A DNA stretch of 37,385 nt from a virus. Lineage: Duplodnaviria > Heunggongvirae > Uroviricota > Caudoviricetes. The stretch's first letter is position 1, and each line of letters starts with the position of its first letter. Of this stretch, positions 1,003 through 32,108 are shown piece by piece. The notes below the pieces were generated by a model. That model was given only the letters and a program-made list of their open reading frames with translations. It did not search any database and had not been told where the DNA came from. The stretch is from the IMG/VR virus record IMGVR_UViG_2651869691_000008. The stretch is one strand, 5' to 3'. Both the position numbers and the translations under genes were made by a program.

Positions 1003-1045
1003 TGGGAAAGATAAGAATAAAATCAAAGCAATAAGCAGTGTCGTG

Positions 1046-1154: not shown

Positions 1155-1259
1155 CTAAGGATGAAGCAGAATTCTTCTGCAGCTCCTCCGTATTTCGCAT
1201 AGTGAACCAGGACCTCTGTTAAACAAAAATTTTTCTGGGATTTTTCCACTCGACTTCAT
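1155..1259 (-). pseudogene. degenerate hok/gef-like remnant (retains SLCEIR motif, hydrophobic segment lost)
   Basis: minus-strand translation MKSSGKIPEKFLFNRGPGSLCEIRRSCRRILLHP; DNA 1185-1206 and upstream leader 1290-1395 are paralogous to the intact hok locus at 2011-2430. Confidence 0.3.
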
Positions 1260-1540
1260 TTTTCCTCCTGCAATCCACCAACAGGTACCTGCGCTAATCT
1301 ATCTTTTTAATCTGACAACATCTTGGGAAAAGGCAAATTCGTCAGATTTACTGTTTTTCTGCTGCCTCGAATCCCGATGTCTGAAGCACTGATAAGAGTT
1401 CTATCTCTTTGATATAGATCTTTTTTTTGATGAATTGCACGACATATTATCGTTATGACACCTTCTTGTTAAAGGTATTGTACTCCTCATCTCGATTTTA
1501 TGATGTGGGCTATGATTGGTTAGTAATAGAGTGTATCGGT

Positions 1541-1822
1541 ATGCGATGTGGTTTATTAATGGCAATCTGCCTTTGTTTAGTATCTTTTAGCGGATATGCA
1601 GCAACAGGAAAGTCTGATGCTCAGATCAAAAAAGAAATAATTAAAGAATCCATTGAATCTTATCCAGGCAATTGTGCGTGTCCTTATAATCATGCAAGGA
1701 ATGGTAGTAGATGTGGTGGACGCAGTGCATATAGCCGTAATGGAGGGTATGACGTGGTATGTTATGAGGGTGATGTTACCGATGAAATGATCCGGCAATG
1801 GAAGCAGGAGAATGCTGAGTAA
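1541..1822 (+). CDS. small secreted or periplasmic protein of unknown function (Sec-type signal peptide, several Cys)
   Basis: ATG at 1541 gives MRCGLLMAICLCLVSFSGYAATG...; AT-rich; start could be further upstream in the 1427 ORF; function unknown. Confidence 0.4.
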   Translation: MRCGLLMAICLCLVSFSGYAATGKSDAQIKKEIIKESIESYPGNCACPYNHARNGSRCGGRSAYSRNGGYDVVCYEGDVTDEMIRQWKQENAE

Positions 1823-1890
1823 TCTCTTTTAACAGGTTTGTTGTGCGAGCATTATGTGCCGTTAACGGTACACTAGCTAGTGATAGTTCC

Positions 1891-1931
1891 AAAAAGAAAA
1901 CCCGCAGTTCTTACGCTGCGGGTTTGTTGTT
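1891..1931. terminator. bidirectional hairpin terminator (CCCGCAG...CTGCGGG) flanked by A/T runs
   Basis: stem CCCGCAG / CTGCGGG with T-rich tracts on both strands; lies 3' of hok (minus) and of the 1541-1822 ORF (plus). Confidence 0.5.
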
Positions 1932-2010
1932 CATGTCTGTGAGATAGGGTGCCACTTCAGCCAACCTTAGCAACCGATTGACGGGGGATTGCTCCCCCGT
2001 CGCGGTTTCC

Positions 2011-2151
2011 TTACTGCTTACACTGTAAGAACGCCGCAAACTCCGCTCCCCAGAAGCTCATCCGTATTTCACACAGCGAACCGTGTAGCATCCAGATGAT
2101 GAGGATTACCGTCACGCAGAACGTGATGGCCGTAAGCGATTTTTGCGACAT
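2011..2151 (-). CDS. Hok/Gef-family type I toxin (46 aa, single TM helix)
   Basis: minus-strand ORF MSQKSLTAITFCVTVILIIWMLHGSLCEIRMSFWGAEFAAFLQCKQ, not in the ORF track because <60 aa; AAGGAG RBS 8 nt upstream; SLCEIR and E.AAF motifs typical of Hok; 3' hairpin GACGGGGGATTGCTCCCCCGTC at 1979-2000 and terminator at 1891-1931. Confidence 0.6.
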   Translation of the reverse strand: MSQKSLTAITFCVTVILIIWMLHGSLCEIRMSFWGAEFAAFLQCKQ

Positions 2152-2342
2152 AGCGCTTGCTCCTTTGTTGGAGAGGCGCTAACCTATCACTTGCTTAAGG
2201 TAGATATGTTAGGGCCTCGGTTAAACAGAAATGTTTTCCGGGGCCTTTCCACATCTGGCCTTCGGGTATTCCCTCCGACCATCAGCCGAAAGGCACCCGC
2301 GCGTAATCTATCGCTTTTTTGTTACTCCGGCAATTCTGCCTG

Positions 2343-2603
2343 TTAATTCTGAGGTAAAGGCAAACTCATCTGATTGTTTCCCCTGTGTGAAGCTGGCAGC
2401 TCATGCCACGGGATACCTTCTGAAGAGTGAACGCCGGAGGTGTGTTTTGATGTGAATTTATGGAAAGCTTCCAGTGTTGAGAAGCATACGCCGCATTCCA
2501 GGTTGTTACACTGGTAATACTTTTGCCGCACGGTGTTTGAATCATTTTCCGGACGACTGGTGCGGATACGGGCAGATGCGCCACAAAGCGGACAACGGAA
2601 CAT
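2343..2603 (-). CDS. ogr: Ogr/Delta-family zinc-finger late-gene transcriptional activator
   Basis: MFRCPLCGASARIRTSR...YYQCNNLECGVCF four-Cys motif as in P2 Ogr; AAGGGAGG RBS; its 3' coding end overlaps DNA paralogous to the hok leader. Confidence 0.8.
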   Translation of the reverse strand: MFRCPLCGASARIRTSRPENDSNTVRQKYYQCNNLECGVCFSTLEAFHKFTSKHTSGVHSSEGIPWHELPASHRGNNQMSLPLPQN

Positions 2604-2645
2604 AGCGACCTCCCTTAACGTGGTGCTGCTGCTATTCTAAGTTGC

Positions 2646-3755
2646 TCACTCTGTTTCTGCTATCCATTCCGGGATTTTTGCCTCAAGCTCAAGCTGCGTG
2701 GTAAAGCCGCTGTTATCGATGGTGTGCTCGGCTTTTGCAATAATCCAGTCCTGATTATCAATCTCGCTTTTAAATCCTGTTACCGTGCCATGCATTTCGG
2801 GGTAGAGTTCTGCACGACCACATGCCAGCGTGATGGAGAATGATGCGGCTCCGCGTTGTAGCTGCTGCCACTTTGCCGCCGCTGCGCGTCTTGCTGCCTG
2901 CTCGTTCTGATAAGTCTTGCGTAACACAAACACATTGCCTTCCGCGCCTTCCATATAATCACCTTCGCGGCTGCTGCTTTTCTCCTTTTTGGGTTTTGGC
3001 GGTTTGCGGTGTTTCACGCTGACTTTTTTCTTTTTCCCGTAATTAAGATCAAGCCAGTAAGCGCGTACCCCCGTATACGCTTCGCGGTCAGCAATGCGGA
3101 ACTGATGGCGATCGCCACTGCTGCGCGTGATGGCGAACGATGGCAACGGCTGGCCCTGTGCGTTCACGCCACCGCCTGGCATAATGAATAACAGATTACC
3201 GCTTTTTACCGTGGTGATTGCGCCCAGCATTTCCGCCATGCGCGTAAGGAAGGACATGTCGCTTTCTTCGGTCTGGTCGGCGTGGTCGATTTCGATATCC
3301 ATCAGCATTTCGCTGATTTGCGGTTTCAGACCATACCGATGAGCGATGGCGGATACCACACGCTCAACGGTCACATCATGCCAGGACACCTCACGTTTAA
3401 CGTTAAATTCATCCCGAAAATCTGCGCTTCTGGCTGAAACAGTCAGCCTGTCCGGCGGTCCTTCGTGAGCGATTTCATCAACAATGTAAGTGCCTTTTTC
3501 TGTCAGCGGTTCTCCTTTCCAGCCAATGAGAACCGTCAGGCGCGCGCCCCGTGGCGGTAGCTGCAACTGACCATCCGCATCATCCAGCGTGATGGTGAGC
3601 TGGTCCGCGTCAAATCCCCGGTTGTCGGTCAGTGACAGGCTCATCAGGCGCTCTGCCACGCCTGACAGCGTTTTACCCTCCGCGAGAATATCAAAATCCG
3701 GCATTTTCACGGGGTCTGTGCCCTGACTGAGCAATTGCATGGTGGTATCGGTCAT
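2646..3755 (-). CDS. P2 gpD-like tail protein (late control gene D)
   Basis: start refined to ATG at 3755 (GGAGGG RBS 5 nt upstream) within the 2646-3887 ORF; by P2 synteny the gene preceding ogr is D; family call from position and size. Confidence 0.8.
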   Translation of the reverse strand: MTDTTMQLLSQGTDPVKMPDFDILAEGKTLSGVAERLMSLSLTDNRGFDADQLTITLDDADGQLQLPPRGARLTVLIGWKGEPLTEKGTYIVDEIAHEGPPDRLTVSARSADFRDEFNVKREVSWHDVTVERVVSAIAHRYGLKPQISEMLMDIEIDHADQTEESDMSFLTRMAEMLGAITTVKSGNLLFIMPGGGVNAQGQPLPSFAITRSSGDRHQFRIADREAYTGVRAYWLDLNYGKKKKVSVKHRKPPKPKKEKSSSREGDYMEGAEGNVFVLRKTYQNEQAARRAAAAKWQQLQRGAASFSITLACGRAELYPEMHGTVTGFKSEIDNQDWIIAKAEHTIDNSGFTTQLELEAKIPEWIAETE

Positions 3756-3912: not shown

Positions 3913-5097
3913 ATGAGTGAAACTCGTTTTCATGGTGCCCGTGTTACGGAAAATACCGACCTGGTAACAGCGATTAACGATGTTGATTCCAGCGTTATCG
4001 GTATCGTGGCAACGGCGGATGATGCGGACGCGAAGCTGTTCCCGCTGAACAAGCCCACACTGCTGACCCGCGTCAATGACGTGCTGGGAAAATGCGGGAC
4101 AACGGGGACGCTTTATCGTGCGCTTAAGGCCATCGCAGACCAGGTGAGCACAAAGGTGATCGTCGTTCGCGTGGCTGAACACAAAGAAGAAGACGGAAAG
4201 ACGCAGGATCAACTGGTTATCGGTGGTTCTGAATCTGACGGCAGCTATACGGGGATGTATGCGCTGCTTGTTGCAGAGCAGGATGAAAGCATCGGATACC
4301 GTCCGCGTATTCTGGCCGCGCCGGAGCTGGACACGGAGGCGGTGACAAAATCCCTGTGCGTGATTGCGGGTAAACTGCGCGCGTTTGTGTATGCCTCATG
4401 TCACGGCTGTAACACGATGGCTGAGGTGATTACCTACCGCCAGAAATTCAACGAACGTGAGGTGATGCTCTTATGGCCGGACTTCATCGCCTACAACCCG
4501 AAAAGTGGCAAAAACGAAACGTTCCCCGCGCCTGCCTATGCGTGCGGCCTTCGTGCGTACATTGACCATGAGCAGGGATGGCACAAATCACTGTCCAACG
4601 TTCCGGTTAAAAATGTGCTGGGGATGTCCAGGCATGTGTTCTGGTCGTTGCAGGCCGAAGACAGCGATGCCAACAGCCTCAACAACAAAGAAATCACGAC
4701 CATTATTCGTCGCAACGGGTTCCGCTTCTGGGGCAACCGCACACCGGAAACGAACGCCTACATCTTTGAGGTGTATACCCGAACCGCACAGGTGCTGGCT
4801 GATTCAATTGCGGAAGCGCAGTTTGAAACCATCGACAGTCCACTGACGCCTGCGAACGTGAAAGATGTTATCAGTGCCATCAGGGCAAAACTGGATTCAC
4901 TGGTTACTGCCGGGAAACTGATTGGGGCGTCGTGCTGGTATGACGTGGTGGATAACGGCACCACGAATTTACGTCAGGGGCGTGTGCGTATTCGCTACAA
5001 ATATACGCCTGTTCCCCCGCTGGAAGACATGGAGCTTTACCAGTCGTTTACTGATGAATTCTTTGGTCCCGCATTTGCGGTGCTGGGAGGTGTCTGA
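3913..5097 (+). CDS. contractile tail sheath protein (P2 gpFI-like)
   Basis: 394-aa ORF; sheath-like size and position ahead of the tube gene; opposite strand to D/ogr. Confidence 0.85.
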   Translation: MSETRFHGARVTENTDLVTAINDVDSSVIGIVATADDADAKLFPLNKPTLLTRVNDVLGKCGTTGTLYRALKAIADQVSTKVIVVRVAEHKEEDGKTQDQLVIGGSESDGSYTGMYALLVAEQDESIGYRPRILAAPELDTEAVTKSLCVIAGKLRAFVYASCHGCNTMAEVITYRQKFNEREVMLLWPDFIAYNPKSGKNETFPAPAYACGLRAYIDHEQGWHKSLSNVPVKNVLGMSRHVFWSLQAEDSDANSLNNKEITTIIRRNGFRFWGNRTPETNAYIFEVYTRTAQVLADSIAEAQFETIDSPLTPANVKDVISAIRAKLDSLVTAGKLIGASCWYDVVDNGTTNLRQGRVRIRYKYTPVPPLEDMELYQSFTDEFFGPAFAVLGGV

Positions 5098-5609
5098 TGG
5101 CTGTACCAAAACATCTTCGCTTTTTTACGCTGTTTGTGGATGGTGAAAACGAAGTGGGTAAGGTGACGTCCGTCACCCTGCCTAAACTGACGCGCAAAAC
5201 CGACAGCTATCGTGGTGGTGGCATGATGGGGGCGGTAAGTATTGATCTCGGTCTGGACGACTCCGCGCTTGATGCGAGTTTTGTTATGGGGGGAGCTGTT
5301 CGTGCGCTGTTCCTTAAATATGGCGGCACGATTGACGGCACGCTGCTGCGTTTTGCGGGTGAATACTACACCGATGCAGAAAGCGATCTGTATGAAATCG
5401 AGATGCGCGGACGTGTGACGGAAATTGATATGGGGGAAGCCAAACAGGGCGAAGCCACATCACACACTTACGCCATTAAAAACACCTACTACAAGCTGAG
5501 TGTTAACGATCGCCCGTTGTGGGAGATTGACCTGCTGAACTTCATTTACCGGAAGGACGGCAAGGACATTGTGCCCGATCGCATCCGTTCCGCGCTTGGG
5601 CTTGGCTGA
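5097..5609 (+). CDS. tail tube protein (P2 gpFII-like)
   Basis: 170-aa ORF; start overlaps the sheath stop (TGATG). Confidence 0.85.
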   Translation: MAVPKHLRFFTLFVDGENEVGKVTSVTLPKLTRKTDSYRGGGMMGAVSIDLGLDDSALDASFVMGGAVRALFLKYGGTIDGTLLRFAGEYYTDAESDLYEIEMRGRVTEIDMGEAKQGEATSHTYAIKNTYYKLSVNDRPLWEIDLLNFIYRKDGKDIVPDRIRSALGLG

Positions 5610-5663
5610 TAAGTAATATGCAGGCGGCGCAGTGCGTCGCCTCTGACTGAAAGGAGTTTCCTG

Positions 5664-6029
5664 ATGAAAGAGACGAAAAACATCGATACCGAAAACACGG
5701 TCGTTGCTGACACTGTGAAAGAAACCAGTGAGCGTGGCGTAAAACTTACCCAACCAATTGAGCGAGGCGGCGAAAAAATCACGTATGTGGAGATCACCGG
5801 AGCTATTGAGCAGGCTGGATCTCTGCGAGATTTGTCGCTGTCTGATGTGCTGAATCTGAAAGCGGAATCCATGTTTACGCTGCTGTCACGCGTGACATCA
5901 CCGCGACTGGATGAAGTGACGATCAAAAAAATGGCATCCCGTGACTTTATTCAGTTATGTGCGGTTGCCGTAAATTTTTTGAGCGGTGCGGACTCTGGCG
6001 GGAAGAACGAACAGGCGACGGAAGCCTGA
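5664..6029 (+). CDS. tail assembly chaperone (P2 gpE-like)
   Basis: 121-aa acidic ORF immediately upstream of the tape-measure gene. Confidence 0.75.
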   Translation: MKETKNIDTENTVVADTVKETSERGVKLTQPIERGGEKITYVEITGAIEQAGSLRDLSLSDVLNLKAESMFTLLSRVTSPRLDEVTIKKMASRDFIQLCAVAVNFLSGADSGGKNEQATEA

Positions 6030-6193
6030 TCACGATTGTGTGCTTTGAGCACATAGAAGACTTTGTGGCAGATATTGCCGTTATTTTTAACTGGTCGCCC
6101 GCCGAAATCTTCATGATGACGCCCGGCGAAGTGGTTAGCTGGCGTGAGCGGGCGGCACTTCGCAGCGGGAGTGCAGACAATGAAGACTCTTGA
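5664..6193 (+). CDS. gpE+E' fusion chaperone made by programmed -1 frameshift at the T-run 5975-5981
   Basis: slippery TTTTTTG at 5975-5981 in the E frame; the -1 frame continues ...FFERCGLWREERTGDGSLITIVCFEHIEDFVADIAVIFNWSP... to a stop at 6193, overlapping the T start. Confidence 0.6.
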
Positions 6194-8987
6194 TATCCGG
6201 GTCGCTTTCAGCGCCGTTGACAGGCTGACCCGGCCTGCCGAAAACGCCCGCCGCCTGATGGGGCAGTTTGGTGACTCCATCCAGCGAACGCAGGGGGCGA
6301 TCAAAAATCTCGAGCGTCAGGCGCGTTCATTTGAGCGCGCCCGCGACGCTGTCAGTAAAGCGGATGCGGGTATCGTGAAAGCACGACGCCAGCTTAACGC
6401 CCTTAATCAGTTACAACGCACGGGTACAGTGCTCAGCGAAAAACAACAAAAGCTGATGCAGCAGTTAAGCAGCCGGCTTGAACGCCTGAATGAATCGCGC
6501 ACACGGGAAATTCAGAAAATGCGGGAACTTGGCGGAGAGCTGAAACGCCACGGCATTTCCCTGACAGGCAGCGATAACACCATCCAGCAGGCCATCAGAC
6601 GCACCGAACAGTACAACAACCAGCTTGAACGCGAACGGCAGGCGCTTGCGCGTGTAACGCGGGCGCGTGAGCGGTATTCGCGCGCGCAGGAAACCGCGGG
6701 AAAACTGAAAACAGGTGGTGCGCTGGCAATTGGTGCTGCAGCGGCTGGCGGCTATGCTGCCGGGCGTTTTTTGCAGCCTGCGATCGGGTTCGGCAAAGAG
6801 ATGTCCCGCGTTCAGGCACTGACGCGAATCGACAAAAACAGCCCGCAGTTTAAGGCGCTGCGTGAGCAGGCGTTAAAACTTGGTTCTGAAACACAGTTTA
6901 CTGCGAGTGATGCCGCCAGTGGGCAGAGCTTTCTGGCAATGGCTGGTTTTACTCCGCAGGCCATTCAGGCCGCATTGCCCGGTGTTCTTAATATGGCGCT
7001 GGCAGGTGGCGTCGAACTCGGCGAGACGGCTGATATAGGCTCCAATATCCTCACACAGTTCAACCTGACAGCCGATCAAATGGACCGGGTTGGCGATACG
7101 CTGACAGCAGCATTCACCCGGACCAATACTGATTTACGCGCGCTGGGCGAAACCATGAAGTATACCGGTCCGGTTGCCGCAAAACTTGGTATCAGTCTTG
7201 AAGAAGCGGCGGCCATGGCCGGGATGCTTGCCAATAATGGTCTTCGCGGAAGCGATGCTGGTACGGCCATGCGCGCAAGTCTGTCCCGCCTTGCATCACC
7301 GCCAAAAGCTGCGGCTGATGCACTGAAAGAGCAGGGGGTGTCAGTTGCTGACGCCAGAGGCAAAATGCGCCCGATGGAGGATGTGCTGCTTGATCTCTAT
7401 AAGGCGACACAAAAATACGGACAGGTGGACCAGGTCTCCTTCTTCAAGGACATCGCCGGAGAAGAGGCGTTCGTTGGTTTGCAGACGCTTGTTGCGGCGG
7501 CTGGTTCAGGAGAACTGCAAAAACTGACCAGAGAATTGCAGGGGGCAAGGGGAGAGGCCGATCGCGTTGCAAAAGTAATGGCCGATAATCTTGATGGAGA
7601 CCTGAAAAATCTCGACAGCGCATGGGAAGGTCTTCGTATTCGCATCAGTGATCTGGTTGACGGTCCGCTGCGTTCTGTCACGCAGTGGCTCACGCGGGTG
7701 CTTGAAAAAATCACCTCGCTGGCGCAGGCCCATCCGGTACTGACGCGCCAGCTACTGATAGCAAGCGGTGCGTTGCTGGCAATGACTGCAACGATTGGCT
7801 CGTTGTCGCTGGTTATTGGGGTGCTTTACGGGAAGCTGGCCACCTTGCGTCTTGGTTTCGACATTCTTACCCGGTCAATGAATGTCATCAGGGTGTTGCC
7901 TGCGCTGTGGGGAATGGTGACGGGTTCTGTTTCTTTGCTGGGAGGAGCTATCGGGGCGCTGTTCAGTCCGGTTAGTCTTATCGTGGCTGCGCTTGCCGGC
8001 GCTGCCGTTCTTATCTGGAAATACTGGGATCCCATCAGGGCATTTTTTGCCGGGGTGTTCAGCGGGATTATGGAAAGGCTGAACCCGTTGCGTGAAACCT
8101 TTGAACGGTTTGGCCCTGTTTTTGACGCAATCGGAAGCGGGATCAGCCAGGTGTTTAACTGGTTTAAATCGCTGCTGTCACCGATGGAGTCCAGCAAGGA
8201 AACGCTGGATAAATGTACCAGTGCTGGCGAGATATTCGGTAACGTTCTTGGTGGCGCGTTACAGCTTGTTCTGACGCCTGCAAAAATGTTGCTGGATACG
8301 CTGGCGTGGATACTTGAAAAACTCGGTGTTCTTCCGGATGAAGCGGAAAGGGCGAGAAAGAAAATCGAAGACGCACAGCGTGCGGCCATTCTTCAGGACA
8401 AGGTTGCCTTACTTCAAGGGGACCTGGCGAAAATCAATCCGCCGAAGCCTGTGGAAAATGGCAATGGCACCGGAGGTGATAAACCCAAAGACAACAAACC
8501 GCTCACAGACAGCAATACCGGGACGCTACGCAGACTCAGCAAAATTGCTGATAACACAGGTAAGCTGGTTGATGAGACGAAAAAACGCATTGGCCCCGGC
8601 GATATTGTCTTTAAGAACCTGCCCCGCGCACTTGCTGTTCGTGGGGAGTGGCAGGAGCGGAAGATTGCGCAGGTCAGTAAGCCTGCCCCCGCAATTAATA
8701 TCACACCTGTGGTTCCGGCTCCGCTGCCTCCGGCGCTGGTCCCTGTTGTTGCGGCCAGCTCCCGCCCGGTGGCAGAGGCCATACGATCGCCAGTGGCATC
8801 AGTTCCTGCAACTTCCCGTAACCGGGAGACTGTTGCCTCCGGATTTGGCGGTGAAATTCATGTTCATCTGCATAACGTTGTTACGCAGAATCCCCGCGAA
8901 CTGGCGAAACTGGTCGGTGAAATGGTCAGGGCAGAGATGGAACGGCGCGCCCGTGCCGGGCGTGGCAGTTTTTACGATAAAGATTGA
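6180..8987 (+). CDS. tail tape measure protein (P2 gpT-like)
   Basis: long ORF, coiled-coil-rich N-terminus, Ala/Gly-rich hydrophobic middle; ATG at 6180 preferred (GGGAG RBS) over GTG at 6144. Confidence 0.85.
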   Translation: MKTLDIRVAFSAVDRLTRPAENARRLMGQFGDSIQRTQGAIKNLERQARSFERARDAVSKADAGIVKARRQLNALNQLQRTGTVLSEKQQKLMQQLSSRLERLNESRTREIQKMRELGGELKRHGISLTGSDNTIQQAIRRTEQYNNQLERERQALARVTRARERYSRAQETAGKLKTGGALAIGAAAAGGYAAGRFLQPAIGFGKEMSRVQALTRIDKNSPQFKALREQALKLGSETQFTASDAASGQSFLAMAGFTPQAIQAALPGVLNMALAGGVELGETADIGSNILTQFNLTADQMDRVGDTLTAAFTRTNTDLRALGETMKYTGPVAAKLGISLEEAAAMAGMLANNGLRGSDAGTAMRASLSRLASPPKAAADALKEQGVSVADARGKMRPMEDVLLDLYKATQKYGQVDQVSFFKDIAGEEAFVGLQTLVAAAGSGELQKLTRELQGARGEADRVAKVMADNLDGDLKNLDSAWEGLRIRISDLVDGPLRSVTQWLTRVLEKITSLAQAHPVLTRQLLIASGALLAMTATIGSLSLVIGVLYGKLATLRLGFDILTRSMNVIRVLPALWGMVTGSVSLLGGAIGALFSPVSLIVAALAGAAVLIWKYWDPIRAFFAGVFSGIMERLNPLRETFERFGPVFDAIGSGISQVFNWFKSLLSPMESSKETLDKCTSAGEIFGNVLGGALQLVLTPAKMLLDTLAWILEKLGVLPDEAERARKKIEDAQRAAILQDKVALLQGDLAKINPPKPVENGNGTGGDKPKDNKPLTDSNTGTLRRLSKIADNTGKLVDETKKRIGPGDIVFKNLPRALAVRGEWQERKIAQVSKPAPAINITPVVPAPLPPALVPVVAASSRPVAEAIRSPVASVPATSRNRETVASGFGGEIHVHLHNVVTQNPRELAKLVGEMVRAEMERRARAGRGSFYDKD

Positions 8988-22387: not shown

Positions 22388-24139
22388 ATGATTCAGGACG
22401 CTTTTGTGCGCCAGCGTGCGCGGCAACTTTACTGGCAGGGTTATCCGCCCGCAGAAATATCACGTCTGATGGGAATAAACCCGAACACGATTTATGCGTG
22501 GAAAAAACGCGACCAGTGGGATGAAACGCCACCCGTGCAGCGTGTCACGCAGTCCATCGATGCGCGCCTCATCCAGCTTACTGAAAAACAGAATAAAACA
22601 GGTGGTGACTTTAAGGAAATAGACCTGCTGACCCGGCAGCTTAAAAAACTGCATGATGGCCAGCCGGATGCGACGGCCACAGGAAAGAAAGGCCGGGCGA
22701 AAAAACTCAAAAATCATTTCACGCCGGAGCAGATTGCCGCACTGCGGGAAAAAATCATCAGCAGGCTCGAGTGGCATCAGCGGGGCTGGTTTGACTCCCT
22801 GACCCTTTGCAGAGAAGCCGGGATACGTAACAGGATGATCCTGAAATCCCGACAGATTGGGGCGACCTGGTATTTTGCACAGGAAGCACTGCTGATGGCG
22901 CTGCGTGACGATGTGGCACAACCATACCAGCGTAACCAGATTTTTTTGTCTGCGTCGCGTCGTCAGGCGTTCCAGTTTAAAAGCATTATTCAGAAGGCCG
23001 CGGCTGAAGTTGATGTGGAGCTGAAAGGGGGCGATAAAATCATCCTCTCCAACGGCGCAGAGCTGCATTTTCTCGGCACTTCTGCTGCGTCGGCACAGTC
23101 CTATACGGGCAATTTTTATTTTGATGAATTTTTCTGGGTCAGTCGCTTTGCTGAACTGCGCAAGGTGGCTGGCGCTATGGCAACCCTCAGCGGACTGCGG
23201 CGCACCTACTTCTCCACGCCATCCACCGAAACGCACGAGGCATACGCCTACTGGAACGGCGACCGCTGGAACGAGAAAAAGGCCACGCATAAACGCCAGC
23301 GTTTTTCTGTGGACTGGAAAACGCTGCATAACGGGCTTATCTGCCCTGACCGGACGTGGCGGCAAATTGTCACGCTGGAAGATGTGGTTAATCACGGCTG
23401 GAAACACACCGATATTGACGAAATTCGTGATGAAAACACCGAAGACGAGTTCCGCAATCTCTATATGTGTGAGTTTGTCCGCGAAGGGGAATCGGCATTT
23501 AACCTGAATATCCTGATTGGCTGCGGTGTTGACGGATACGACGACTGGAAAGACTGGAAACCTTTTGCTCCCCGCCCGATGGGGAATCGTCCGGTATGGA
23601 TTGGGTATGACGCAAACGGCAGCAGTGGCAACGGCGACAGCGGCGCTGTGTCCGTGGTGGTTCCTCCGGCTGTTCCTGGTGGCCGTTTTCGAACGGTGGA
23701 GACGCGACGCGTTCAGGGGCTGGAGTTTGAAGAACAGGCCAGAGTCATTGAAGAGTTCACGTGTAGCTACAACGTGGAACACATCGGCATTGATGTGACG
23801 GGCGGGAACGGGGAGGCTGTTTATCAGATAGTGAAGCGGTTTTTCCCTGCTGCTATTCCGTACACCTTCACGCTGTCATCCAAACGGTCGCTGGTACTGA
23901 AAATGCTGCAAATAATGCGTGCCGGACGGTGGGAATACGATCGCGCCGAACGCGAGCTGGTCGCGGCCTTTAACGCCGTGCGTAAGGTGAAAACACCGGG
24001 CGGCTTTATCACTTACGAAACGGACCGCGCGAGGGGGATCAGCCACGGCGACCTTGCGTGGGCAACCATGCTTGCTGTCATTAACGAACCAATTGGCGGC
24101 GAAGGAGAAAACGAGCGTTTCACGGTTATGGAGTTCTGA
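22388..24139 (+). CDS. terminase large (ATPase) subunit (P2 gpP-like)
   Basis: 583-aa ORF divergent from O; terminase-like size and position. Confidence 0.9.
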   Translation: MIQDAFVRQRARQLYWQGYPPAEISRLMGINPNTIYAWKKRDQWDETPPVQRVTQSIDARLIQLTEKQNKTGGDFKEIDLLTRQLKKLHDGQPDATATGKKGRAKKLKNHFTPEQIAALREKIISRLEWHQRGWFDSLTLCREAGIRNRMILKSRQIGATWYFAQEALLMALRDDVAQPYQRNQIFLSASRRQAFQFKSIIQKAAAEVDVELKGGDKIILSNGAELHFLGTSAASAQSYTGNFYFDEFFWVSRFAELRKVAGAMATLSGLRRTYFSTPSTETHEAYAYWNGDRWNEKKATHKRQRFSVDWKTLHNGLICPDRTWRQIVTLEDVVNHGWKHTDIDEIRDENTEDEFRNLYMCEFVREGESAFNLNILIGCGVDGYDDWKDWKPFAPRPMGNRPVWIGYDANGSSGNGDSGAVSVVVPPAVPGGRFRTVETRRVQGLEFEEQARVIEEFTCSYNVEHIGIDVTGGNGEAVYQIVKRFFPAAIPYTFTLSSKRSLVLKMLQIMRAGRWEYDRAERELVAAFNAVRKVKTPGGFITYETDRARGISHGDLAWATMLAVINEPIGGEGENERFTVMEF

Positions 24140-25185
24140 TGAGCAGAAAAAATAAAAAAGTGCGCATGAGTTCACGCATTGATCTCGCTGATGCGCTCAG
24201 GAAAGAATCATCGCTCAGTGCATTCACATTTGATGGTCCTTATCGCCTGACCGGGCATGACCTGCTGGACAATATGTACTGTGCTGATAACGGGCGGTGG
24301 TATGAAACCCCGGTGGACTGGTACGGTCTGGCAAGAGCCGCCCGGCAAACGTCCTGGCATCAGTCTGCGCTTTACTTTAAGCGCAATGTATTGCTCGGTT
24401 GCTACATCCCGCACCCGCTGCTTTCCCGGCAGGATTTCTCGGCGCTGGCGCTGGACTGGTTTGTGTTCGGTAACGCATTCCTTGAGCTTCGGAGTAATAT
24501 GCTCGGCGAACCACTTAAATTACGGCACGCACTGGCGAAATACGTGCGACGCGGAAGCGATCTTGAATCATGGTGGTATGTGCAGGATGGCAAGGACGCG
24601 TTTCAGTTTCGCCCTGGCAAAGTGTGCCACCTGATGAATCCGGACATTAACCAGGAAATTTACGGCATGCCGGAATATCTTGGCGCATTACTCTCGGCCA
24701 GCCTTTCTCATTCGGCGGACATGTTCAGAAAACTGTACTACGACAACGGATCCCACGCCGGGTGCATCATCTACATCGGTGCAGCGCAGGTAAACCGCGA
24801 AAGCATGGACTCCCTGAAAGAAACGCTACAGGGGGCACGTGGTGGTGGTGCGTTTAAAAACGTGCTCATTCATGCGCCCAACGGGGGCAAAGAGGGGGTG
24901 CAAATTTTGCCGTTCCAGCAGATCACCGCAAAAGATGAGTTCATGAATGTTAAGGCGGCATCCCGTGATGATGTGCTGGCTGCGCACCGCGTTCCGCCGC
25001 AACTGATGGGGGCGATGCCGGGCGAAAAAAGTGCGTTTGGTGATGTGGAGAAGGCCGCGCGGGTTTACGCAATTAACGAGCTGATGCCCGTCATGGAGGC
25101 CATGAAGCATATCAATGACTGGCTTGGCGAAGAGGTGATCCGCTTTAACCCTTACGCACTGTTAGATACCCAGCCCACATCCTGA
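24139..25185 (+). CDS. portal protein (P2 gpQ-like)
   Basis: 348-aa ORF overlapping the P stop (TGATG); last late gene before the cos region. Confidence 0.9.
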   Translation: MSRKNKKVRMSSRIDLADALRKESSLSAFTFDGPYRLTGHDLLDNMYCADNGRWYETPVDWYGLARAARQTSWHQSALYFKRNVLLGCYIPHPLLSRQDFSALALDWFVFGNAFLELRSNMLGEPLKLRHALAKYVRRGSDLESWWYVQDGKDAFQFRPGKVCHLMNPDINQEIYGMPEYLGALLSASLSHSADMFRKLYYDNGSHAGCIIYIGAAQVNRESMDSLKETLQGARGGGAFKNVLIHAPNGGKEGVQILPFQQITAKDEFMNVKAASRDDVLAAHRVPPQLMGAMPGEKSAFGDVEKAARVYAINELMPVMEAMKHINDWLGEEVIRFNPYALLDTQPTS

Positions 25186-25643
25186 CGCGCTTCGCTTGTC
25201 TGCTGCTTCGCCGGGGCATAAAAAATTTATGCCCCGACTCTCCAGCTCCTGTATCAGTCAGATAATTTCACGACGCTTTCCTGCTTATTGCCATCATCGA
25301 CGGTCAGACTCTTACGCAATCCCACTGCGCTGACTGCATGTTCTCGCCGCCTCAGTGCGATTTTGACGGCCTTACCTTTCACCCCATCAAACCAGAATCC
25401 CTCACGTATTTTTCACGCTCAGCGTGAGAAATACGGCCATTCTGTCGTGTCGCTGCGACATCGTTAAGGGAACGCTATTTACCCCCTGAAACGCGGGCTG
25501 TTCCCCCGTCACCTGCGCGCAGAAAAAACGCGTTTTTTTGTGCACGCACGGATCCTTGACGGATCCAGCCGCCACGGGGGTCGGAAGGGTAAAAAGTCGT
25601 TCAAAAAAATTGTGCAAATTTGTGCACTATTGTGCATTAAAAT

Positions 25644-25670
25644 AAACGCCCAGGAAGAGGGCGTTTTGGC
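25644..25670. terminator. bidirectional hairpin terminator closing the minus-strand cargo operon
   Basis: AAACGCCC-AGGAAGAG-GGGCGTTTT with T-runs on both strands. Confidence 0.5.
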
Positions 25671-25676
25671 TTATTT

Positions 25677-25937
25677 CTATAGCTTTGATGCAGGCTGGGC
25701 CAGATGCAAGGGTTGGACATACCAGCCTTTTGATAACCAACTCTCTGCAACCTCTTTACTCCTTGTTATTGCTGGTATTCCGATGCCGTTATTTACATGC
25801 ATCCATGCTACTGGCTCTGCTTCCAGTGATGCCAGTGCAATTTCATAAGCACGGCGCTCAATATTGTCTCGAACGTCCAAGCTGCCTATGCGCTCTTTGA
25901 TTTCTTTAATCAGTTCTTTGTCGGTGAAAGTTGTCAT
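25677..25937 (-). CDS. hypothetical protein (cargo operon gene 4)
   Basis: 86-aa ORF, GAGGA RBS, 3 nt after the upstream gene stop. Confidence 0.55.
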   Translation of the reverse strand: MTTFTDKELIKEIKERIGSLDVRDNIERRAYEIALASLEAEPVAWMHVNNGIGIPAITRSKEVAESWLSKGWYVQPLHLAQPASKL

Positions 25938-25940
25938 GTG

Positions 25941-26228
25941 TTAGTCCTCATCCACTTCAACGCCATCTTTCAGCGTGATGCCGTGCCAATCATCAGCCCA
26001 ACTGGTTAGCCCTGGCGCATCAATGCTAGGCATATAAACGCTTGCAGTGTGGTAGCCCTTATCGTTATCAATGCTGGCAACGTGCTCGCCGTTGTATGCG
26101 CTCAGCGTGTCCAGGACGCTATAAAACTTTCCTCCGGCTGCCCTGAAATCCTTTACAGCCTTCACAAGGCGATTCCACGCTTTTTCCTGTTCTGGCGTCA
26201 GGTCGATTAATTCCTGCAAAGTTGCCAT
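25941..26228 (-). CDS. hypothetical acidic protein (cargo operon gene 3)
   Basis: start refined to ATG at 26228 (AAGGAG RBS); MATLQELIDLTPEQEKAWNRL... Confidence 0.55.
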   Translation of the reverse strand: MATLQELIDLTPEQEKAWNRLVKAVKDFRAAGGKFYSVLDTLSAYNGEHVASIDNDKGYHTASVYMPSIDAPGLTSWADDWHGITLKDGVEVDED

Positions 26229-26229
26229 A

Positions 26230-26544
26230 TCACTCTCCTTTGATGTCAATGTTTACAGCTTGGCAAGCCTCTTTGAGCACCCAGTCAACAGCGTCTTTCC
26301 ATGCTCCGGTTTCGGTTGGCGGATTCTCACGTTTTACCAGTTCATAGAAACGTACTGCTCTAACCAGTCCATCTGACGGTTTTGCCTGTAGTACAGCCTG
26401 AGCTATACGGTATGCCTGGAGCATACGGGCGTCGTTGATATCCATTCCGAACGGAATTTCTGATGATCGTGATTCTGCATCTTCAAGCCTGGCAATTTCT
26501 TTACGTAAAAAGTATTTCAACTCTTGTTTTTGTTTTCTGTTCAT
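26230..26544 (-). CDS. hypothetical protein (cargo operon gene 2)
   Basis: 104-aa ORF; start ATG overlaps the upstream stop (ATGA). Confidence 0.55.
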
Positions 26545-26873
26545 GTGTTTTTTCCCTTTTTGTCTGCCACTTCTCTCCTGATAATTTCATTGCACAAATC
26601 CACGCACTCATTGCAGATGTAAACAGACGGTCCAGCAATCACCTTTGTGACTTCGTACTGGGATTTATTGCAGAAGCTGCAATAAATCGTTTCCTCGCCT
26701 GAAGTCCATGTTTTGCTGGTTTCGCCAGACATCAGTTGTTTGAGGTCTTTTTCACGACGAAGAACTATCTGGCCACATTCAGCTATTTTTTGGATGTTGA
26801 CATTTTCTTCTTTCGCCAGCGCTTCCATCCGCTCAATCAGTCGCTGCGCTTTTTCTCTGTCAATGTGTTGCAT
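26541..26873 (-). CDS. ClpX N-terminal zinc-binding-domain-like protein (stand-alone ZBD with N-terminal helical extension)
   Basis: C-terminal ...[41 protein letters not shown] closely matches the ClpX N-domain ([37 protein letters not shown] as I recall it); no AAA+ module. Confidence 0.7.
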
Positions 26874-26936
26874 TGTGTCCCCTTTGTTTGTGTTCCCGGA
26901 TTAAAGTCATCAGGGCGGATGCGCCCTGATGTTGTA

Positions 26937-27248
26937 TTATTCGGGAAATAACGCCCGGATATTTCCGGCCATCTGACTGGTTATCTGTGCGGTTGATACT
27001 GGCTGTGATGCGGGGCGTTCTGTCCTGGTTTGTGTCACTGATAACGCTTCATCATCAGCCCATGCAGCCAGTCGGTAAGCCTCTGCCGGATTCATTTTCA
27101 GAAGTGCCAGCCCGGCCAGAAAAGCCACACGTTGGCCGCTTTTGCGGGCTTCTGGTGTAAGGCTGTCCAGCCAGGCGCATGCTTCGCCTTCGTTCTTGAC
27201 GGCGGCGGGCTTCAGATAGAAACTTATTCGTCTGGTTGGTGTCGTCAT
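26937..27248 (-). CDS. ParR-like DNA-binding partner protein
   Basis: ATG at 27248 (AAGGAG RBS), 4 nt after the ParM-like stop; N-terminal RRISFYLKP...LDSLTPEARKSGQRVAFLAGLAL and C-terminal NIRALFPE resemble plasmid R1 ParR as I recall it. Confidence 0.55.
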   Translation of the reverse strand: MTTPTRRISFYLKPAAVKNEGEACAWLDSLTPEARKSGQRVAFLAGLALLKMNPAEAYRLAAWADDEALSVTQTRTERPASQPVSTAQITSQMAGNIRALFPE

Positions 27249-27252
27249 TGGT

Positions 27253-28212
27253 TTACTCCTTGTCCATTGCGTACAGCCCATTAACCAGAGCAAACTGTGG
27301 CACCCCGTCCGCGATGAAAGTCGCATTAACTCCGCAGGCTTCGCGGATAGCGGGTGCCACAATCTCCGCCCCGCCACCGACAACCATCACCCGCCCGTAA
27401 CCCGAAAAACCCGCCAGCGCGCGGATCACGCGTTGTTTCAGTGTTTCTTCCTTTTCACGAATAACCGCCATCAGGCTGGCGTAATGCGCGTCATTGTGGA
27501 TGTGCTGGCGCAGCCAGGCTTCATCATGGCGATGTTCGATAATGGTATTGGCGATGTGGTGACTGGTGCGCATACCGTTAGTGGCCATCACCGACAGTAC
27601 GGCATCGGCCATCAGAGAAACGCCTACGTGTGGGTCGCAAAACACCTGGCTGATACCTGCCAGTTGCCCCTGAACCTTTGCCACATCCAGCGTGGTTCCG
27701 CCCAAATCCACAATCAGCAGGGATTCAAACGGACTCATGTCAGCCAGTGCCTTAAAGCCAGCCGGAATGGATTCAGGCATAACCCGCACGTTACGGATAG
27801 TGAATGCTTCGCCGTTCTGGTACTCCACCGGGCGCATAACGTTCGCTTTTTTGCGGTTGATGTTGGGCATGTCCGGCTGTGCGTTTGTGTCGAAATATTC
27901 GCTCAGTGGCAGGGTGACAACCACATCCACTTCCTGTGGTGTGATGCCTGATTTGACCAGCGCGTGATGAATGGCAATGACATTCACATCGCTGTACTGG
28001 TATTGCGTGTCGGTCGTCTGGACAAAGCGATCGCTGACCGGATCAAAACCATAGCGCACGCCATCAAGCATGTAGTTCGCGGGCTGCGTGCCACCGAACG
28101 GCGCAGACCATTCCGACTTGAAGCTGTTCGGGCTGATGGCGTTGCGGCGTTCGCCGTTCTCAGTCCATGCCAGCTTGATGTTGGTGGAGCCGTCATCGAT
28201 ACAAATTTTCAT
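27253..28212 (-). CDS. ParM/StbA-family actin-like ATPase
   Basis: MKICIDDGSTNIKLAW...ISPNSF...YSDVNVIAIHHAL...MPESIPAG...LIVDLGGTTLDV...VMVVGGGAEI; strong resemblance to plasmid R1 ParM throughout. Confidence 0.85.
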   Translation of the reverse strand: MKICIDDGSTNIKLAWTENGERRNAISPNSFKSEWSAPFGGTQPANYMLDGVRYGFDPVSDRFVQTTDTQYQYSDVNVIAIHHALVKSGITPQEVDVVVTLPLSEYFDTNAQPDMPNINRKKANVMRPVEYQNGEAFTIRNVRVMPESIPAGFKALADMSPFESLLIVDLGGTTLDVAKVQGQLAGISQVFCDPHVGVSLMADAVLSVMATNGMRTSHHIANTIIEHRHDEAWLRQHIHNDAHYASLMAVIREKEETLKQRVIRALAGFSGYGRVMVVGGGAEIVAPAIREACGVNATFIADGVPQFALVNGLYAMDKE

Positions 28213-28246
28213 GTCGCTTTTCCTTATGTTGATTAATTAATCGTTT

Positions 28247-28339
28247 ACGGGATTCTGAAATCCCGTTTTTGCCTGTTTTATGCGCGCTTCATATATCGCG
28301 GCGCGTTTTTTGCTCATTTACGGGATTTGTGAATCCCGT
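28247..28339. repeat. two ~39-bp direct repeats each containing an 8-bp-arm palindrome (ACGGGATT-N4-AATCCCGT), 73 bp apart
   Basis: palindromes at 28247-28266 and 28320-28339; one in the A/parM intergenic region, one inside the last codons of A; candidate operator or centromere-like sites. Confidence 0.6.
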
Positions 28340-31111
28340 TTCTGTCTGTTTTTTGTTTCCACTGGTCAGGCCACCCCGCAGCAGGTCTGCTTTGCGGTGG
28401 GCGCGTTCAGTGGTTTCACTGATTCTCTGTGCGTGCTCTGCGTCGCGGATGGCGCGCAGCATGTCAGAAAGCACGGTAACGGGTGTTTTCATGGTGTTCT
28501 GGTCTTGCTGAAGTGTGGATGCCAGGCGTGCGGCGGCTTCGGGGTCTGATGCCCCCAGCTGTTCCAGATAGCTGGCGACCGGGTTATGGCGGATCTCCGT
28601 GCTGCTTACGCCGTGGTTACGGCTCAGGCGCTGCCAGAGCTGCGTGATCCGGCTGTCCGGTCGGGTATCCGGTTTGCGTACAATTTCAAATCCCTGCGGT
28701 GCAATGATGCTGCCGTCAACGTACAGACTGCCGCCCCGTAACAGGTGCTGCATCTGCTGTTCACCGATATGCAGGCCGAGAGATTCAGCAGACTCCCGCC
28801 ATTCTTTAGCGAGTAATTCGTGGTTATCAGGCAAAGGCCGCTGCTGTTTGCGGCTCTGTGTCCAGCTCTGCATTTCATCACGGCTGTTTTTTGCCTGTTT
28901 GTCACGAAGCGAACGCATCAGCGCCCGGCGTTCGTGCCGTTTCAGTGAGCGCATCCATTCGTTCACTTCAACGCCGTCAGGGAGCTGCGGCCACGGTGCT
29001 GGCCGTTCTTCCGGCTGTTCTGTCCCGTTGTTGTCTGTTTCCTGTACACGGGGACAGTTATTGCCACGAGTCCAAGGGGCGGCAGGGCCGCCCTGAAGGT
29101 CAAAACCATTTTCGCGGGCGCTGTCTTCCGCTTCCGGTTTGCGTCTTACCAGCTTCCAGTTATCCGGATGCGTGCACACACGGGAGGATTCCCCGATGAG
29201 TGGTGACCAGATCCCGTAAATCTGTACGCTCTGTTCGCCGTAATCGTTCAGCTCATCGGCGAGGTCGTAGGCGGTGCGAATCAGGTAGTCTTTGCGTGGA
29301 ACAAGTACGCCGCCCTGTTTCTCAATGTAGGTGGCAAAACATCCGGCATCAGCGGCAGCAAGAACCGCATCCATTGCGTCATCCTTCAGCCGTTGCGGGC
29401 CTTCCGGGTTGCGTGCCATCTGGCTGGCAAGGCGACGCAGTTCACGCCACACCTGACGGGAGGGGATGCCAAAGAACTGGAACTGGCGGACCCGGTGAAG
29501 GCGCGCCCAGCCAATGGCGCGTTCCACGCTCTCGGTCATTGATTTTCCGGTTTCGTGGTCAACGCGTGGTTTGCCTGTTTTCGGGTCGATGCCATCCACG
29601 GCGCGGCTGTCCAGGTTTTTTCCGATGTAGGTGGCGATGTAGCTGGTTGGCGTGCCTTTTGAGCCGTCGACATACTCCGCCTTAAAGCGCGGAGTAATAT
29701 CATCGCCCAGCTCGTGACGATCTTCCTGAATGGCAATATCGCGGGTGTGGGACACAATGGTGTCGATTTCTTCCGGATGAGCAAAGACCATCATATGCCA
29801 GTGCACGGTGCCGTCATGGTGAGGCTCCACCGTGCGGATGCCATACCAGCGCAGGCCGTCGCGGTTCAGTTTCTTGCGGACCGCCGCAAAAAACGTGTTA
29901 ACCAGGTAATCGCTGGAGTCGCGCATGGTGGCCCCGTTCCATTTGGGATTCGGATGACCGTTCTCTGTTGTAGCGTGGTATTTTGACGGGCAGGTGACAG
30001 TCAGAAACACCGCTTTGTCGCCACGGGCTTCGGCCAGAAGTTCCAGCCCCTTCATGGTGGCCATCATTTCTGCCTTACGGTGAACCGGGTTACTTACTCC
30101 CGCGTAATACACTGTCTTGAGATCAATCGTGAACCCGTCTTCGTTTTCCAGCATGAAACTTTTCAGGAAATCGCGTGTTTTCTCGCGCTGTGCGCGAAAC
30201 TCGCTTAACGCGTCCTGGCTCAGATAGGGCGATGTTTTTCTGGAAACCAGACAGGCGGCGCGGAGTTGTTCTTCTCTCCACTCGCAACGTAACAGCCACA
30301 GTTTGCGTTTCCACCATTCCGCACAGGTCAGGCGAAGGATTGCGCCCGGCAGCAGCTCCGTGTCCGGTTCGTTCCTCCGGTCTTTGTCTGTTGTCAGTGC
30401 GTCATAATGTGGAGGCATGGCGTGCAGGTGTAACGCCATGCGGGCCAGCATCTGATACGCCTTCAGCGTTACATCCATGGTCAGTTCGCCATCGGTCGCG
30501 CCAAAGCCATCGCAGAGTTTTTCGAAGGTGCTGCTGAACATCGCCGCCGTCATGGTGGCCAGCGTCTGTATCTGGTGTTTGTTGAGCTGCGGCAGGTAAA
30601 GCAAATCGTCCAGGCGTTCGCGTCCGGCAAGGGAGCGATAACCCTGTGTCAGCCAGCGGTGATCGGTGCGCTCCAGACGTTCGAATATTTTGCGCAGGTT
30701 TCCGCGCGCGTAGCGTTCAGCCTGCCAGCTCTTTTTGCCTTTCTGACGATCGGCTTCCTGTTTTTTGCGCAGGAAGGAGAGGTGGCGAATAAGCGGATCG
30801 CGCAGATAGGACGGCAGCAGGCGCAGCGAGGCCATGGCTTCATCCACCGCACCGCGTGCCTGTTTTCTGGCGTCTCCTGCCAGTGTGATGGTTTTGTCCT
30901 GTTTTTCCTGTGCGTCCAGGCTTTTATTAATCAGGTTGCCCAGCGGCGTTGCGGAGAACGCCGCATCAGCCATTTCCTGGCGGCGCTCGTTCTCTACCCG
31001 GTAGGCATCCAGCCAGGAGGAAAGCGCGGATTCAGGAGCGGGGATCCCCGTTCCTTCACGCCCCACTGCGTGGCGCGGTTGTTGCCAGTCCCTGATGTAC
31101 TCTGCCGTCAT
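28289..31111 (-). CDS. rolling-circle replication initiation protein (P2 gpA-like)
   Basis: 940 aa; DGTVHWHMMVF and YIATYIGKN motifs of the phiX174 A / P2 A family; longer than I expect for P2 A. Confidence 0.9.
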   Translation of the reverse strand: MTAEYIRDWQQPRHAVGREGTGIPAPESALSSWLDAYRVENERRQEMADAAFSATPLGNLINKSLDAQEKQDKTITLAGDARKQARGAVDEAMASLRLLPSYLRDPLIRHLSFLRKKQEADRQKGKKSWQAERYARGNLRKIFERLERTDHRWLTQGYRSLAGRERLDDLLYLPQLNKHQIQTLATMTAAMFSSTFEKLCDGFGATDGELTMDVTLKAYQMLARMALHLHAMPPHYDALTTDKDRRNEPDTELLPGAILRLTCAEWWKRKLWLLRCEWREEQLRAACLVSRKTSPYLSQDALSEFRAQREKTRDFLKSFMLENEDGFTIDLKTVYYAGVSNPVHRKAEMMATMKGLELLAEARGDKAVFLTVTCPSKYHATTENGHPNPKWNGATMRDSSDYLVNTFFAAVRKKLNRDGLRWYGIRTVEPHHDGTVHWHMMVFAHPEEIDTIVSHTRDIAIQEDRHELGDDITPRFKAEYVDGSKGTPTSYIATYIGKNLDSRAVDGIDPKTGKPRVDHETGKSMTESVERAIGWARLHRVRQFQFFGIPSRQVWRELRRLASQMARNPEGPQRLKDDAMDAVLAAADAGCFATYIEKQGGVLVPRKDYLIRTAYDLADELNDYGEQSVQIYGIWSPLIGESSRVCTHPDNWKLVRRKPEAEDSARENGFDLQGGPAAPWTRGNNCPRVQETDNNGTEQPEERPAPWPQLPDGVEVNEWMRSLKRHERRALMRSLRDKQAKNSRDEMQSWTQSRKQQRPLPDNHELLAKEWRESAESLGLHIGEQQMQHLLRGGSLYVDGSIIAPQGFEIVRKPDTRPDSRITQLWQRLSRNHGVSSTEIRHNPVASYLEQLGASDPEAAARLASTLQQDQNTMKTPVTVLSDMLRAIRDAEHAQRISETTERAHRKADLLRGGLTSGNKKQTETGFTNPVNEQKTRRDI

Positions 31112-31786: not shown

Positions 31787-32108
31787 GGTGTGGCCCCTTG
31801 TGTAGTAAGTTGTGAAAACTCACCATCCAGAGCTGCGAAACTGTGGGTGGCGAGACGTACGAGGTTCGCAGTACCGGCTACACAAGAACCCGGCCCGACC
31901 GAAGTCGGCCCCGTACGCCCCGCCATAATTCTGACGCGAAAAAAACGTGGCAATACAGTACGCACAAAAAAACCGCTGGCGCGGTTGTGCGCTTGTGTAG
32001 TCAGCAGGCTGCGAAACCCGACACCCGTTTTGTGAGGTGCAGCGGAAATGTAACCTGACTGATTGCGGCATGGCAAGCGGTTTTTTTGTGTGTGCATGTT
32101 CTGGTTTC

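Follow-up and report, generated by a model that had tools for sequence, protein, structure and literature searches.

Locus and gene layout

The DNA analysed here (the window) is the whole 37,385-nucleotide (nt) virus record IMGVR_UViG_2651869691_000008, a P88-type (Xuanwuvirus) P2-family prophage of Escherichia coli. Its interval at positions 25677-28288 holds six genes, all on the minus strand: a partition pair (parM and parR), a gene for a protein resembling the zinc-binding domain (ZBD) of ClpX, and three small genes, p104, p95 and p86. Upstream, the interval is flanked by replication gene A (28289-31111, minus strand; 940 amino acids (aa); PF05840, E 4.7e-131; phrog_91, 'nicking at origin'), the last core gene of the early lytic operon. 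Downstream lies portal gene Q (24139-25185, plus strand), with a conserved cos-proximal region between Q and the operon terminator. Since gene A and portal Q flank it, the interval is the gpA-gpQ hotspot, as a preliminary description made from the sequence alone had recognized under the name of the P2 old/tin hotspot. The interval is 97-98% identical at the nucleotide level to phage P88 (NC_026014) and the P2-like prophage of strain UTI89, the identity covering A-parM-parR-ZBD-p104 and the cos region.

In the direction of transcription, the first gene is parM (27253-28212, minus strand), encoding a 319-aa actin-like partition ATPase that matches PF06406 (6e-82) and PF21523 (1.3e-68) over its full length. 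It is followed by parR (26937-27248, minus strand), whose product of 103 aa, counted from an ATG, is a StbB-family DNA-binding adaptor (PF10784, 4e-24; phrog_2515, 3e-58); a 148-aa open reading frame (ORF) starting from TTG was rejected as an over-extension. The ClpX-ZBD gene (26541-26873, minus strand; 110 aa) matches PF06689 at 8e-18. Next comes p104 (26230-26544, minus strand; 104 aa), a modular Ea22-type gene matching phrog_26213 and phrog_660, and then p95 (25941-26228, minus strand; 95 aa), a homologue of gene L0066 of phage 933W (phrog_2821, 9e-66). The last gene, p86 (25677-25937, minus strand; 86 aa), combines an L0065-type leader with a short tail (phrog_5117, phrog_660 and phrog_60). 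The operon ends at an intrinsic terminator (25644-25666, minus strand) consisting of an 8-bp stem followed by ATTTTAAT.

All six proteins match PHROG families with E-values from 1e-26 to 9e-90, and the ratio of nonsynonymous to synonymous polymorphism (pN/pS) among close alleles ranges from 0.04 to 0.60 and is below 1 in every case; therefore the six ORFs are real genes. The number, orientation, coordinates and sizes given in the preliminary description were correct for all of them, and the Pfam matches bear out its reading of the first three products as ParM-like, ParR-like and ClpX-ZBD-like. Its remark that neighbouring genes overlap or lie 1-4 nt apart holds for parM-parR (4 nt), p104-p95 (1 nt), p95-p86 (3 nt) and the ZBD-p104 pair, which shares an ATGA at 26541-26544. 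It left out the 63 nt that separate the ZBD gene from parR, where a GC-rich hairpin with a 10-bp stem (26908-26931, minus strand) is located.

Co-occurrence of the four distal genes

The association of the ZBD gene, p104, p95 and p86 was followed in two samples from IMG/VR. The parM-seeded sample, unbiased as to the distal genes, comprised 61 contigs in which the stretch from parR to Q was complete. In 39 of them all four genes were missing; the ZBD gene was found in 9, p104 without the ZBD gene in 8 and p86 alone in 5, while all four genes occurred together in 2. In the ZBD-seeded sample, the ZBD gene lay directly 3' of parR in all 42 P88-like loci. The gene following it, in about 41 loci, was full-length p104 in 23, the N-terminal module of p104 fused to another C-terminal module in 4, and an unrelated gene in 14, namely one for a 174/197-aa protein or an L0064-like gene. 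The p95 gene was detected in 3 of these ~41 loci, in contigs essentially identical to the window, and the same 3 hold all four genes. Every sub-combination of the four genes was observed across the two samples. Among 5,426 complete E. coli genomes, p95 and p86 were contiguous (at least 80% coverage) in a single one.

The four genes thus assort independently and do not form a conserved multi-gene functional module. The view that they look like one functional unit fails on these counts, the set being absent as a whole from most of the related prophages. The closest relatives illustrate the same variability: in P88, p95 is missing and p104 is joined to the final 8 codons of p86 in a 112-aa fusion (gp20), whereas an XF1762-family gene and an 87-aa gene replace p95 in the UTI89 prophage.

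Relation of p104, p95 and p86 to the lambdoid exo-xis region

The three small proteins had been regarded as unknown, but clear homologues exist in the early regions of lambdoid phages. The p95 product is 99% identical in amino acid sequence to L0066 of 933W, and its DNA is 96% identical to the xis-exo region of many Stx phages. Residues 1-44 of p86 are 86% identical to the leader of 933W L0065 and are followed by a short unrelated tail; the DUF551 domain, located at residues 135-202 of L0065, is missing from p86. L0065 itself has been described as a C-terminal part split off from Ea22 (Donaldson, PMC8614690). The p104 protein consists of an N-terminal leader ending in ...LQAKP and a C-terminal module common to Ead/Ea22-like proteins; its last 50 residues share 66% identity with the C-terminal end of P0278, an Ead/Ea22-like protein of PF13935, and more than 500 relatives of p104 were found in E. 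coli prophages. In other P88-like loci, the same slot is occupied by genes similar to 933W L0064, L0067 and L0068 and by a PF13935 Ead_Ea22 gene.

By their homology, and by a boundary junction shared with lambdoid cassettes (see below), p104, p95 and p86 belong to the lambdoid exo-xis/ea gene pool. As in the exo-xis/ea region of lambda and the Stx phages (ea22; 933W L0063-L0069), they are small genes at the distal end of an early operon. The difference lies in the carrier and the position: the lambdoid genes are situated between exo and xis, and those of the window between gene A and cos in a P2-family phage. The parts of the literature on the exo-xis region considered here report effects on lysogenisation and induction at the level of the region, with Ea22 being pro-lysogenic (PMC3824215, PMC7093339). 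Sub-threshold Pfam, NCBIfam and PADLOC matches (LTXXQ, MC7, DUF2639, valS and PDC-M28C) were discarded. In one otherwise identical contig (L005, interval 396-821, protein P0175), the p104 ORF is 141 aa long and, apparently via stop loss, runs into p95.

Recombination joints and the junction motif

Breakpoints were mapped by aligning 74 distinct intervals, derived from 89 loci, to the window. With 74 different contents in 89 loci of otherwise near-identical phages, the region is a hotspot of variation. It starts exactly at the stop codon of parR, so that its left edge is marked by the hairpin in the parR-ZBD spacer, and ends just past the terminator (~25640), which marks its right edge; homology resumes at r1286-1302. 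Internal breakpoints were found at the end of p104 (r703-720), ~15 nt ahead of p86, within the final codons of p86, and inside p104. The joint within p104 (r561) falls at the boundary of its two modules, between ...LQAKP and SDG....

The joint at the end of p104 coincides with the cassette junction ATCAAAGGAGAGTGAtATG (26226-26244, minus strand), which encodes ...IKGE-stop and doubles as the Shine-Dalgarno sequence of the next gene. The junction motif CATCAAAGGAGAGTGA ends several unrelated cassettes: p104, the UTI89 XF1762-family gene, 933W L0068 and lambda ea22. Because the motif carries both the stop codon of one gene and the ribosome-binding site of the next, a spacing of 1-4 nt is a generic property of such cassettes, and the tight packing, formerly read as translational coupling within a unit, loses that meaning.

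A second, smaller insertion site was noticed at ~25160-25182, between the cos region and the portal Q stop. About 630 bp of extra sequence, not present in the window, is carried there by L012, L026, L035, L161, L169, L203, L204 and L207.

The parMR pair and the upstream palindromes

The first two genes differ from the other four in being a stable feature of the lineage. ParM is ~46-52% identical to plasmid ParM proteins, and both genes are strongly conserved among close alleles (pN/pS 0.07 for parM and 0.26 for parR). An actin-like ATPase with a ParR/StbB adaptor encoded directly downstream, at a gap of 4 nt, is the arrangement of a type II partition (ParMRC) system. Just upstream of parM, two 20-bp palindromes ACGGGATT-N4-AATCCCGT (28247-28266 and 28320-28339) lie 73 bp apart, one on either side of the gene A stop codon; two matches were observed against 0.18 expected. 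The palindromes occur in parMR-bearing loci and are missing from the parMR-less loci L045 and L216-L220, which makes them a candidate parC or ParR operator. Like the ParMRC systems of plasmids R1 and NR1 (StbA/StbB), the pair has both ParM domains, a StbB-type ParR and the order parM-then-parR; the window pair differs in residing in an integrated prophage rather than on a plasmid, and upstream of parM no R1-like array of 11-bp iterons was found, the two 20-bp palindromes being the sole repeats there. Overall, parM and parR, probably together with the palindromes, are a type II partition cassette and a fixed lineage feature of the P88-like P2-family prophages.

Among the complete E. coli genomes, parMR was present in 1,307 of 5,426 (~24%), and 1,453 of its 1,455 places were chromosomal, from which it follows that plasmid maintenance is not the usual state of a parMR prophage. 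According to Rousset et al. (2022; PMC9122126), roughly one in four P2-like phages has a putative partition system at the gpA-gpQ hotspot. The literature search returned nothing specific on parM in P2-like phages. An alternative role for the pair might be in replication after induction, by analogy with the actin-like AlpC of the integrated prophage CGP3, which supports viral DNA replication and not plasmid inheritance (PMC4446434).

The stand-alone ClpX zinc-binding domain

The ZBD protein matches the PDB entries 1OVX/2DS5 at E 2e-19. Its AlphaFold2 (AF2) model, with a mean predicted local distance difference test score (pLDDT) of 78, shows a helical hairpin (residues 6-48), a disordered linker and a C-terminal ClpX-type C4 zinc-binding domain. 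In Foldseek comparisons, this domain superimposes on the E. coli ClpX ZBD structures (2DS5-2DS8) with a root-mean-square deviation of 0.6-1.1 Å and 71-80% identity, and a Foldseek search of the PDB with the model yielded no matches beyond ClpX ZBD structures and generic zinc fingers. The four Cys ligands are invariant across the family, as is F67, while I97 is nearly so; these two residues are the equivalents of ClpX F16 and I46, which sit in the hydrophobic docking patch for λO, SspB, RssB and trigger factor (PMC7804408). Thus the protein shares with the E. coli ClpX N-domain (1OVX, 2DS5-2DS8) the C4 zinc ligands, the fold and the patch residues. In contrast to ClpX, it lacks the AAA+ module with the ClpP-binding IGF loop and adds the N-terminal hairpin. 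Since the chain, 110 aa in all, stops 11 residues past the ZBD helix and has no AAA+ module, it is a stand-alone ZBD and not a ClpX. A HMMER search of the N-terminal 60 residues against 1.84 billion representatives recovered the family itself (12 representatives) and one spurious coiled-coil protein, so that the predicted hairpin is specific to the ZBD family.

The gene was found in 112 of the 5,426 complete E. coli genomes (~2%), corresponding to ~9% of those bearing parMR. Table S5A of Rousset et al. (PMC9122126) covers 18,150 gpA-gpQ loci in all, and its entries considered here give the same proportion, with 43 'ClpX' against 489 'StbA' occurrences. Full-length relatives are few: those in Escherichia are 85-100% identical, followed by single proteins at 70%, 50%, 44% and 36%. 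For the last three, the loci were identified: in each case a P2-like phage carries the gene in the A-to-Q interval, in the orientation of A, and p104, p95 and p86 are missing from its vicinity. The diverged contexts L216, L218 and L219/L220 are without parMR, and the fourth, L045 (36% identity), retains a parR pseudogene just upstream of the ZBD gene; in L219 and L220, both from Salmonella, A is followed in its own orientation by just two genes, the ZBD gene and a 99-aa ORF. The 174-aa neighbour in L216 is ~93% identical to its version in P88-like loci, whereas the ZBD proteins of the same loci are just 50% identical, which means that the neighbours were swapped and not co-inherited. Judged by these sequence contexts, the ZBD gene stands on its own and has retained its place between A and Q. 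One apparent full-length relative, L056, was rejected as the host tig-clpP-clpX-lon locus, and a contig scan with the ZBD protein as the query was dominated by matches to genuine clpX genes.

The literature searches turned up nothing specific on phage-encoded ClpX-ZBD proteins. The protein may be a mimic of the ClpX N-domain, made early in development, that would titrate ZBD-dependent adaptors or substrates or pair with ClpX; this is a tentative proposal, with the odds somewhat against it. The protein would then most likely act alone, binding the adaptors or substrates that dock on the ClpX ZBD or pairing with that domain, and so change how ClpXP degrades a phage or host protein at an early stage. 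Possible effects would be the shielding of a phage protein, for instance a replication initiator, from ZBD-dependent degradation, or a block of defences based on ClpXP-triggered toxin-antitoxin systems. That the family as a whole represents uncharacterised, narrowly distributed early genes of P2-family phages which reprogram ClpXP during infection by such mimicry, through the docking patch or ZBD pairing, is conceivable but doubtful. If it is true, the protein would be a phage-encoded ClpXP regulator by domain mimicry, and a simple case of a phage copying a host docking domain to control proteolysis; in this respect it is the one testable lead from the locus.

Several other proteins with ClpX-like zinc fingers came up during the searches. 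In 933W (L003), gene L0063 of the exo-xis region (1762-2073) encodes a ClpX-ZBD-like finger with a sub-threshold Pfam match (E 0.015); BLASTP against the P2-family ZBD proteins gave 2e-6 to 3e-3, a hint of a distant counterpart in the lambdoid early region. Stand-alone ZBD proteins of other architectures are encoded in the unrelated viral contigs L047 (1-462), L048 (~5833-6198) and L051 (5980-6240), namely one of 153 aa whose ZBD is N-terminal and one of 86 aa. Phages may have acquired the domain more than once. In L045, a distant P2-like phage, a putative Phd/Doc-type toxin-antitoxin pair, assigned to that family by sequence reading, lies between gene A and the ZBD gene (4825-5630, minus strand, and 5730-5927, plus strand), next to the parR pseudogene.

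Expression

A consensus scan of positions 25400-28700 revealed no sigma-70-like promoter, which is a weak negative. The scan also found no sense-strand terminator in the A-parM gap or in the parR-ZBD spacer, where the sense strand of the hairpin has no strong U-tract; the sole good terminator follows p86. In the absence of a promoter match and of an internal sense-strand terminator, read-through from the early lytic operon is the inferred mode of expression. The six genes would then be transcribed from gene A onwards as the tail of this operon and act during infection or induction, and not as an immunity expressed from the prophage. In lambda, the exo-xis genes lie on the pL transcript, which offers an analogue for such read-through.

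Interpretation of the interval and rival explanations

The interval is best explained as a composite of a conserved partition pair and independently exchanged small early-phage cassettes, rather than one unit, a reading that is given a probability of about 75%. Its first part would be the type II partition cassette fixed in the P88-like lineage, and the second, from the parR stop to the terminator (~25650), a recombination hotspot filled by small accessory cassettes. These would be exchanged singly or as half-genes at short conserved junction sequences and drawn from a pool common to the exo-xis/ea early region of the lambdoid and Stx phages. The window holds a rare combination of a ClpX-ZBD protein, the Ea22-type p104, the L0066 homologue p95 and, in p86, a truncated leader protein of the DUF551 type.

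The locus type as such is already catalogued, as is the hotspot, and what is new is the way in which known cassette families are combined there. The catalogue of Rousset et al. (2022; PMC9122126) is defined by the same flanks, replication endonuclease A and portal Q, and its Table S5A, in the entries considered here, lists 'StbA + Plasmid_stab_B + zf-C4_ClpX + hypothetical x3'. Domain arrangements are recorded in those entries without analysis of the ZBD or the small genes, to which the link with the exo-xis pool and the junctions are added here. Genes that are tightly spaced within a known defence hotspot do not thereby constitute a defence operon; in this interval the spacing stems from a shared junction sequence that permits small early genes to be swapped between P2-like and lambdoid phages, two unrelated lineages of temperate phages that use one accessory gene pool of the exo-xis type.

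Several observations weigh against parts of this composite picture. Very closely related contigs, with ParM identities of 99% or more, make up most of both IMG/VR samples, and the locus counts therefore do not represent independent events. Among close alleles, the ZBD gene has a pN/pS of 0.60, which points to modest constraint. The AF2 model of p95, built from a 29-sequence alignment, was uninformative (pLDDT 49). The timing of expression is based on a crude consensus scan, and a weak ParR-regulated promoter overlapping the palindromes is possible; moreover, old and tin of P2 are expressed from the prophage. Finally, the ATGA overlap between the ZBD gene and p104, and their adjacency in over half of the ZBD-bearing loci, may indicate a loose functional pairing.

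The latter observation could also be taken further, to a conserved two-gene module of ZBD and p104 coupled via the ATGA, such as an adaptor together with its partner, or a pair resembling a toxin-antitoxin system. Besides the overlap, p104 stands directly 3' of the ZBD gene not just in the 23 IMG/VR loci but also in P88 and UTI89. Yet the ZBD gene has a different neighbour in 14 loci, its homologues at 36-50% identity never adjoin p104, modules of p104 occur without it and also in hundreds of lambdoid prophage proteins, and the ~93% identity of the 174-aa neighbour across loci with ZBD proteins at 50% speaks for swapping and not co-evolution, which makes such a module unlikely. The constant position after parR in the ZBD-seeded loci, and the parR remnant just upstream of the 36%-identity relative, would fit a third partition component, acting for example in the turnover of ParR or ParM via ClpXP, with parM-parR-ZBD as the real unit. 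It is difficult to reconcile this with the presence of the ZBD gene in 9 of the 61 parMR loci and in ~9% of the parMR-bearing E. coli genomes, with its occurrence without parMR in L216, L218 and L219, or with the 63-nt spacer and hairpin that separate it from parR; a partition role is very unlikely.

The most far-reaching alternative, raised in the preliminary description as a possible new defence module, is that ZBD, p104, p95 and p86 make up one anti-phage or abortive-infection system expressed from the prophage in the manner of P2 old/tin. Its attraction lies in the site, where old, tin, retrons and other systems are carried in P2-like phages (PMC9122126), in other slot occupants with a defence-like appearance such as AAA+Peptidase_S8 and HTH-M78+PIN, and in the tight gene packing. 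However, the six proteins gave no significant match in PADLOC (PADLOC-DB v2), the best being PDC-M28C on p104 (E 0.0047, 13.8 bits), and the four contain no enzymatic or effector domain, the earlier statement that no nuclease or abortive-infection domain is recognisable being upheld. The four genes are not maintained together across loci, the exact p95-p86 adjacency occurs in just 1 of 5,426 complete genomes, the components are early-region genes of lambdoid phages, and a promoter of its own was not detected by the consensus scan. Furthermore, the main text of the functional-selection study of Vassallo (2022) is without ClpX, ParM, zinc finger, Ea22 or DUF551. A four-gene defence system is thus very improbable. 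The companion suggestion of a host-takeover role is not supported for a four-gene module and is plausible for the ZBD gene alone.

Other features of the locus and the window

Larger candidate defence genes occupy the slot in some relatives. In L193, L200 and L206 (~380-3670 after parR), an AAA/HTH_50 ATPase gene is accompanied by a 734-aa gene, given as Peptidase_S8 in the part of the Rousset table concerned, and in L179 (185-1838), a HTH-Peptidase_M78 protein is encoded together with a PIN protein.

Gene A is 940 aa long in the window as opposed to 763-838 aa in the P2-like L216, L218 and L219, where a separate ORF of 96-145 aa with a conserved C-terminal motif overlaps the end of A. In the early operon upstream of gene A, two Rfam matches lie side by side: the C4 antisense RNA (31843-31930, minus strand; 83 bits) and the Hfq-binding small RNA isrK (31966-32040, minus strand; 62 bits). 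The low-GC left end of the window, presumably host flank at the prophage end, carries a cluster of tRNA-Gly(GCC), tRNA-Cys(GCA) and tRNA-Leu(TAA) genes (701-1002, plus strand).

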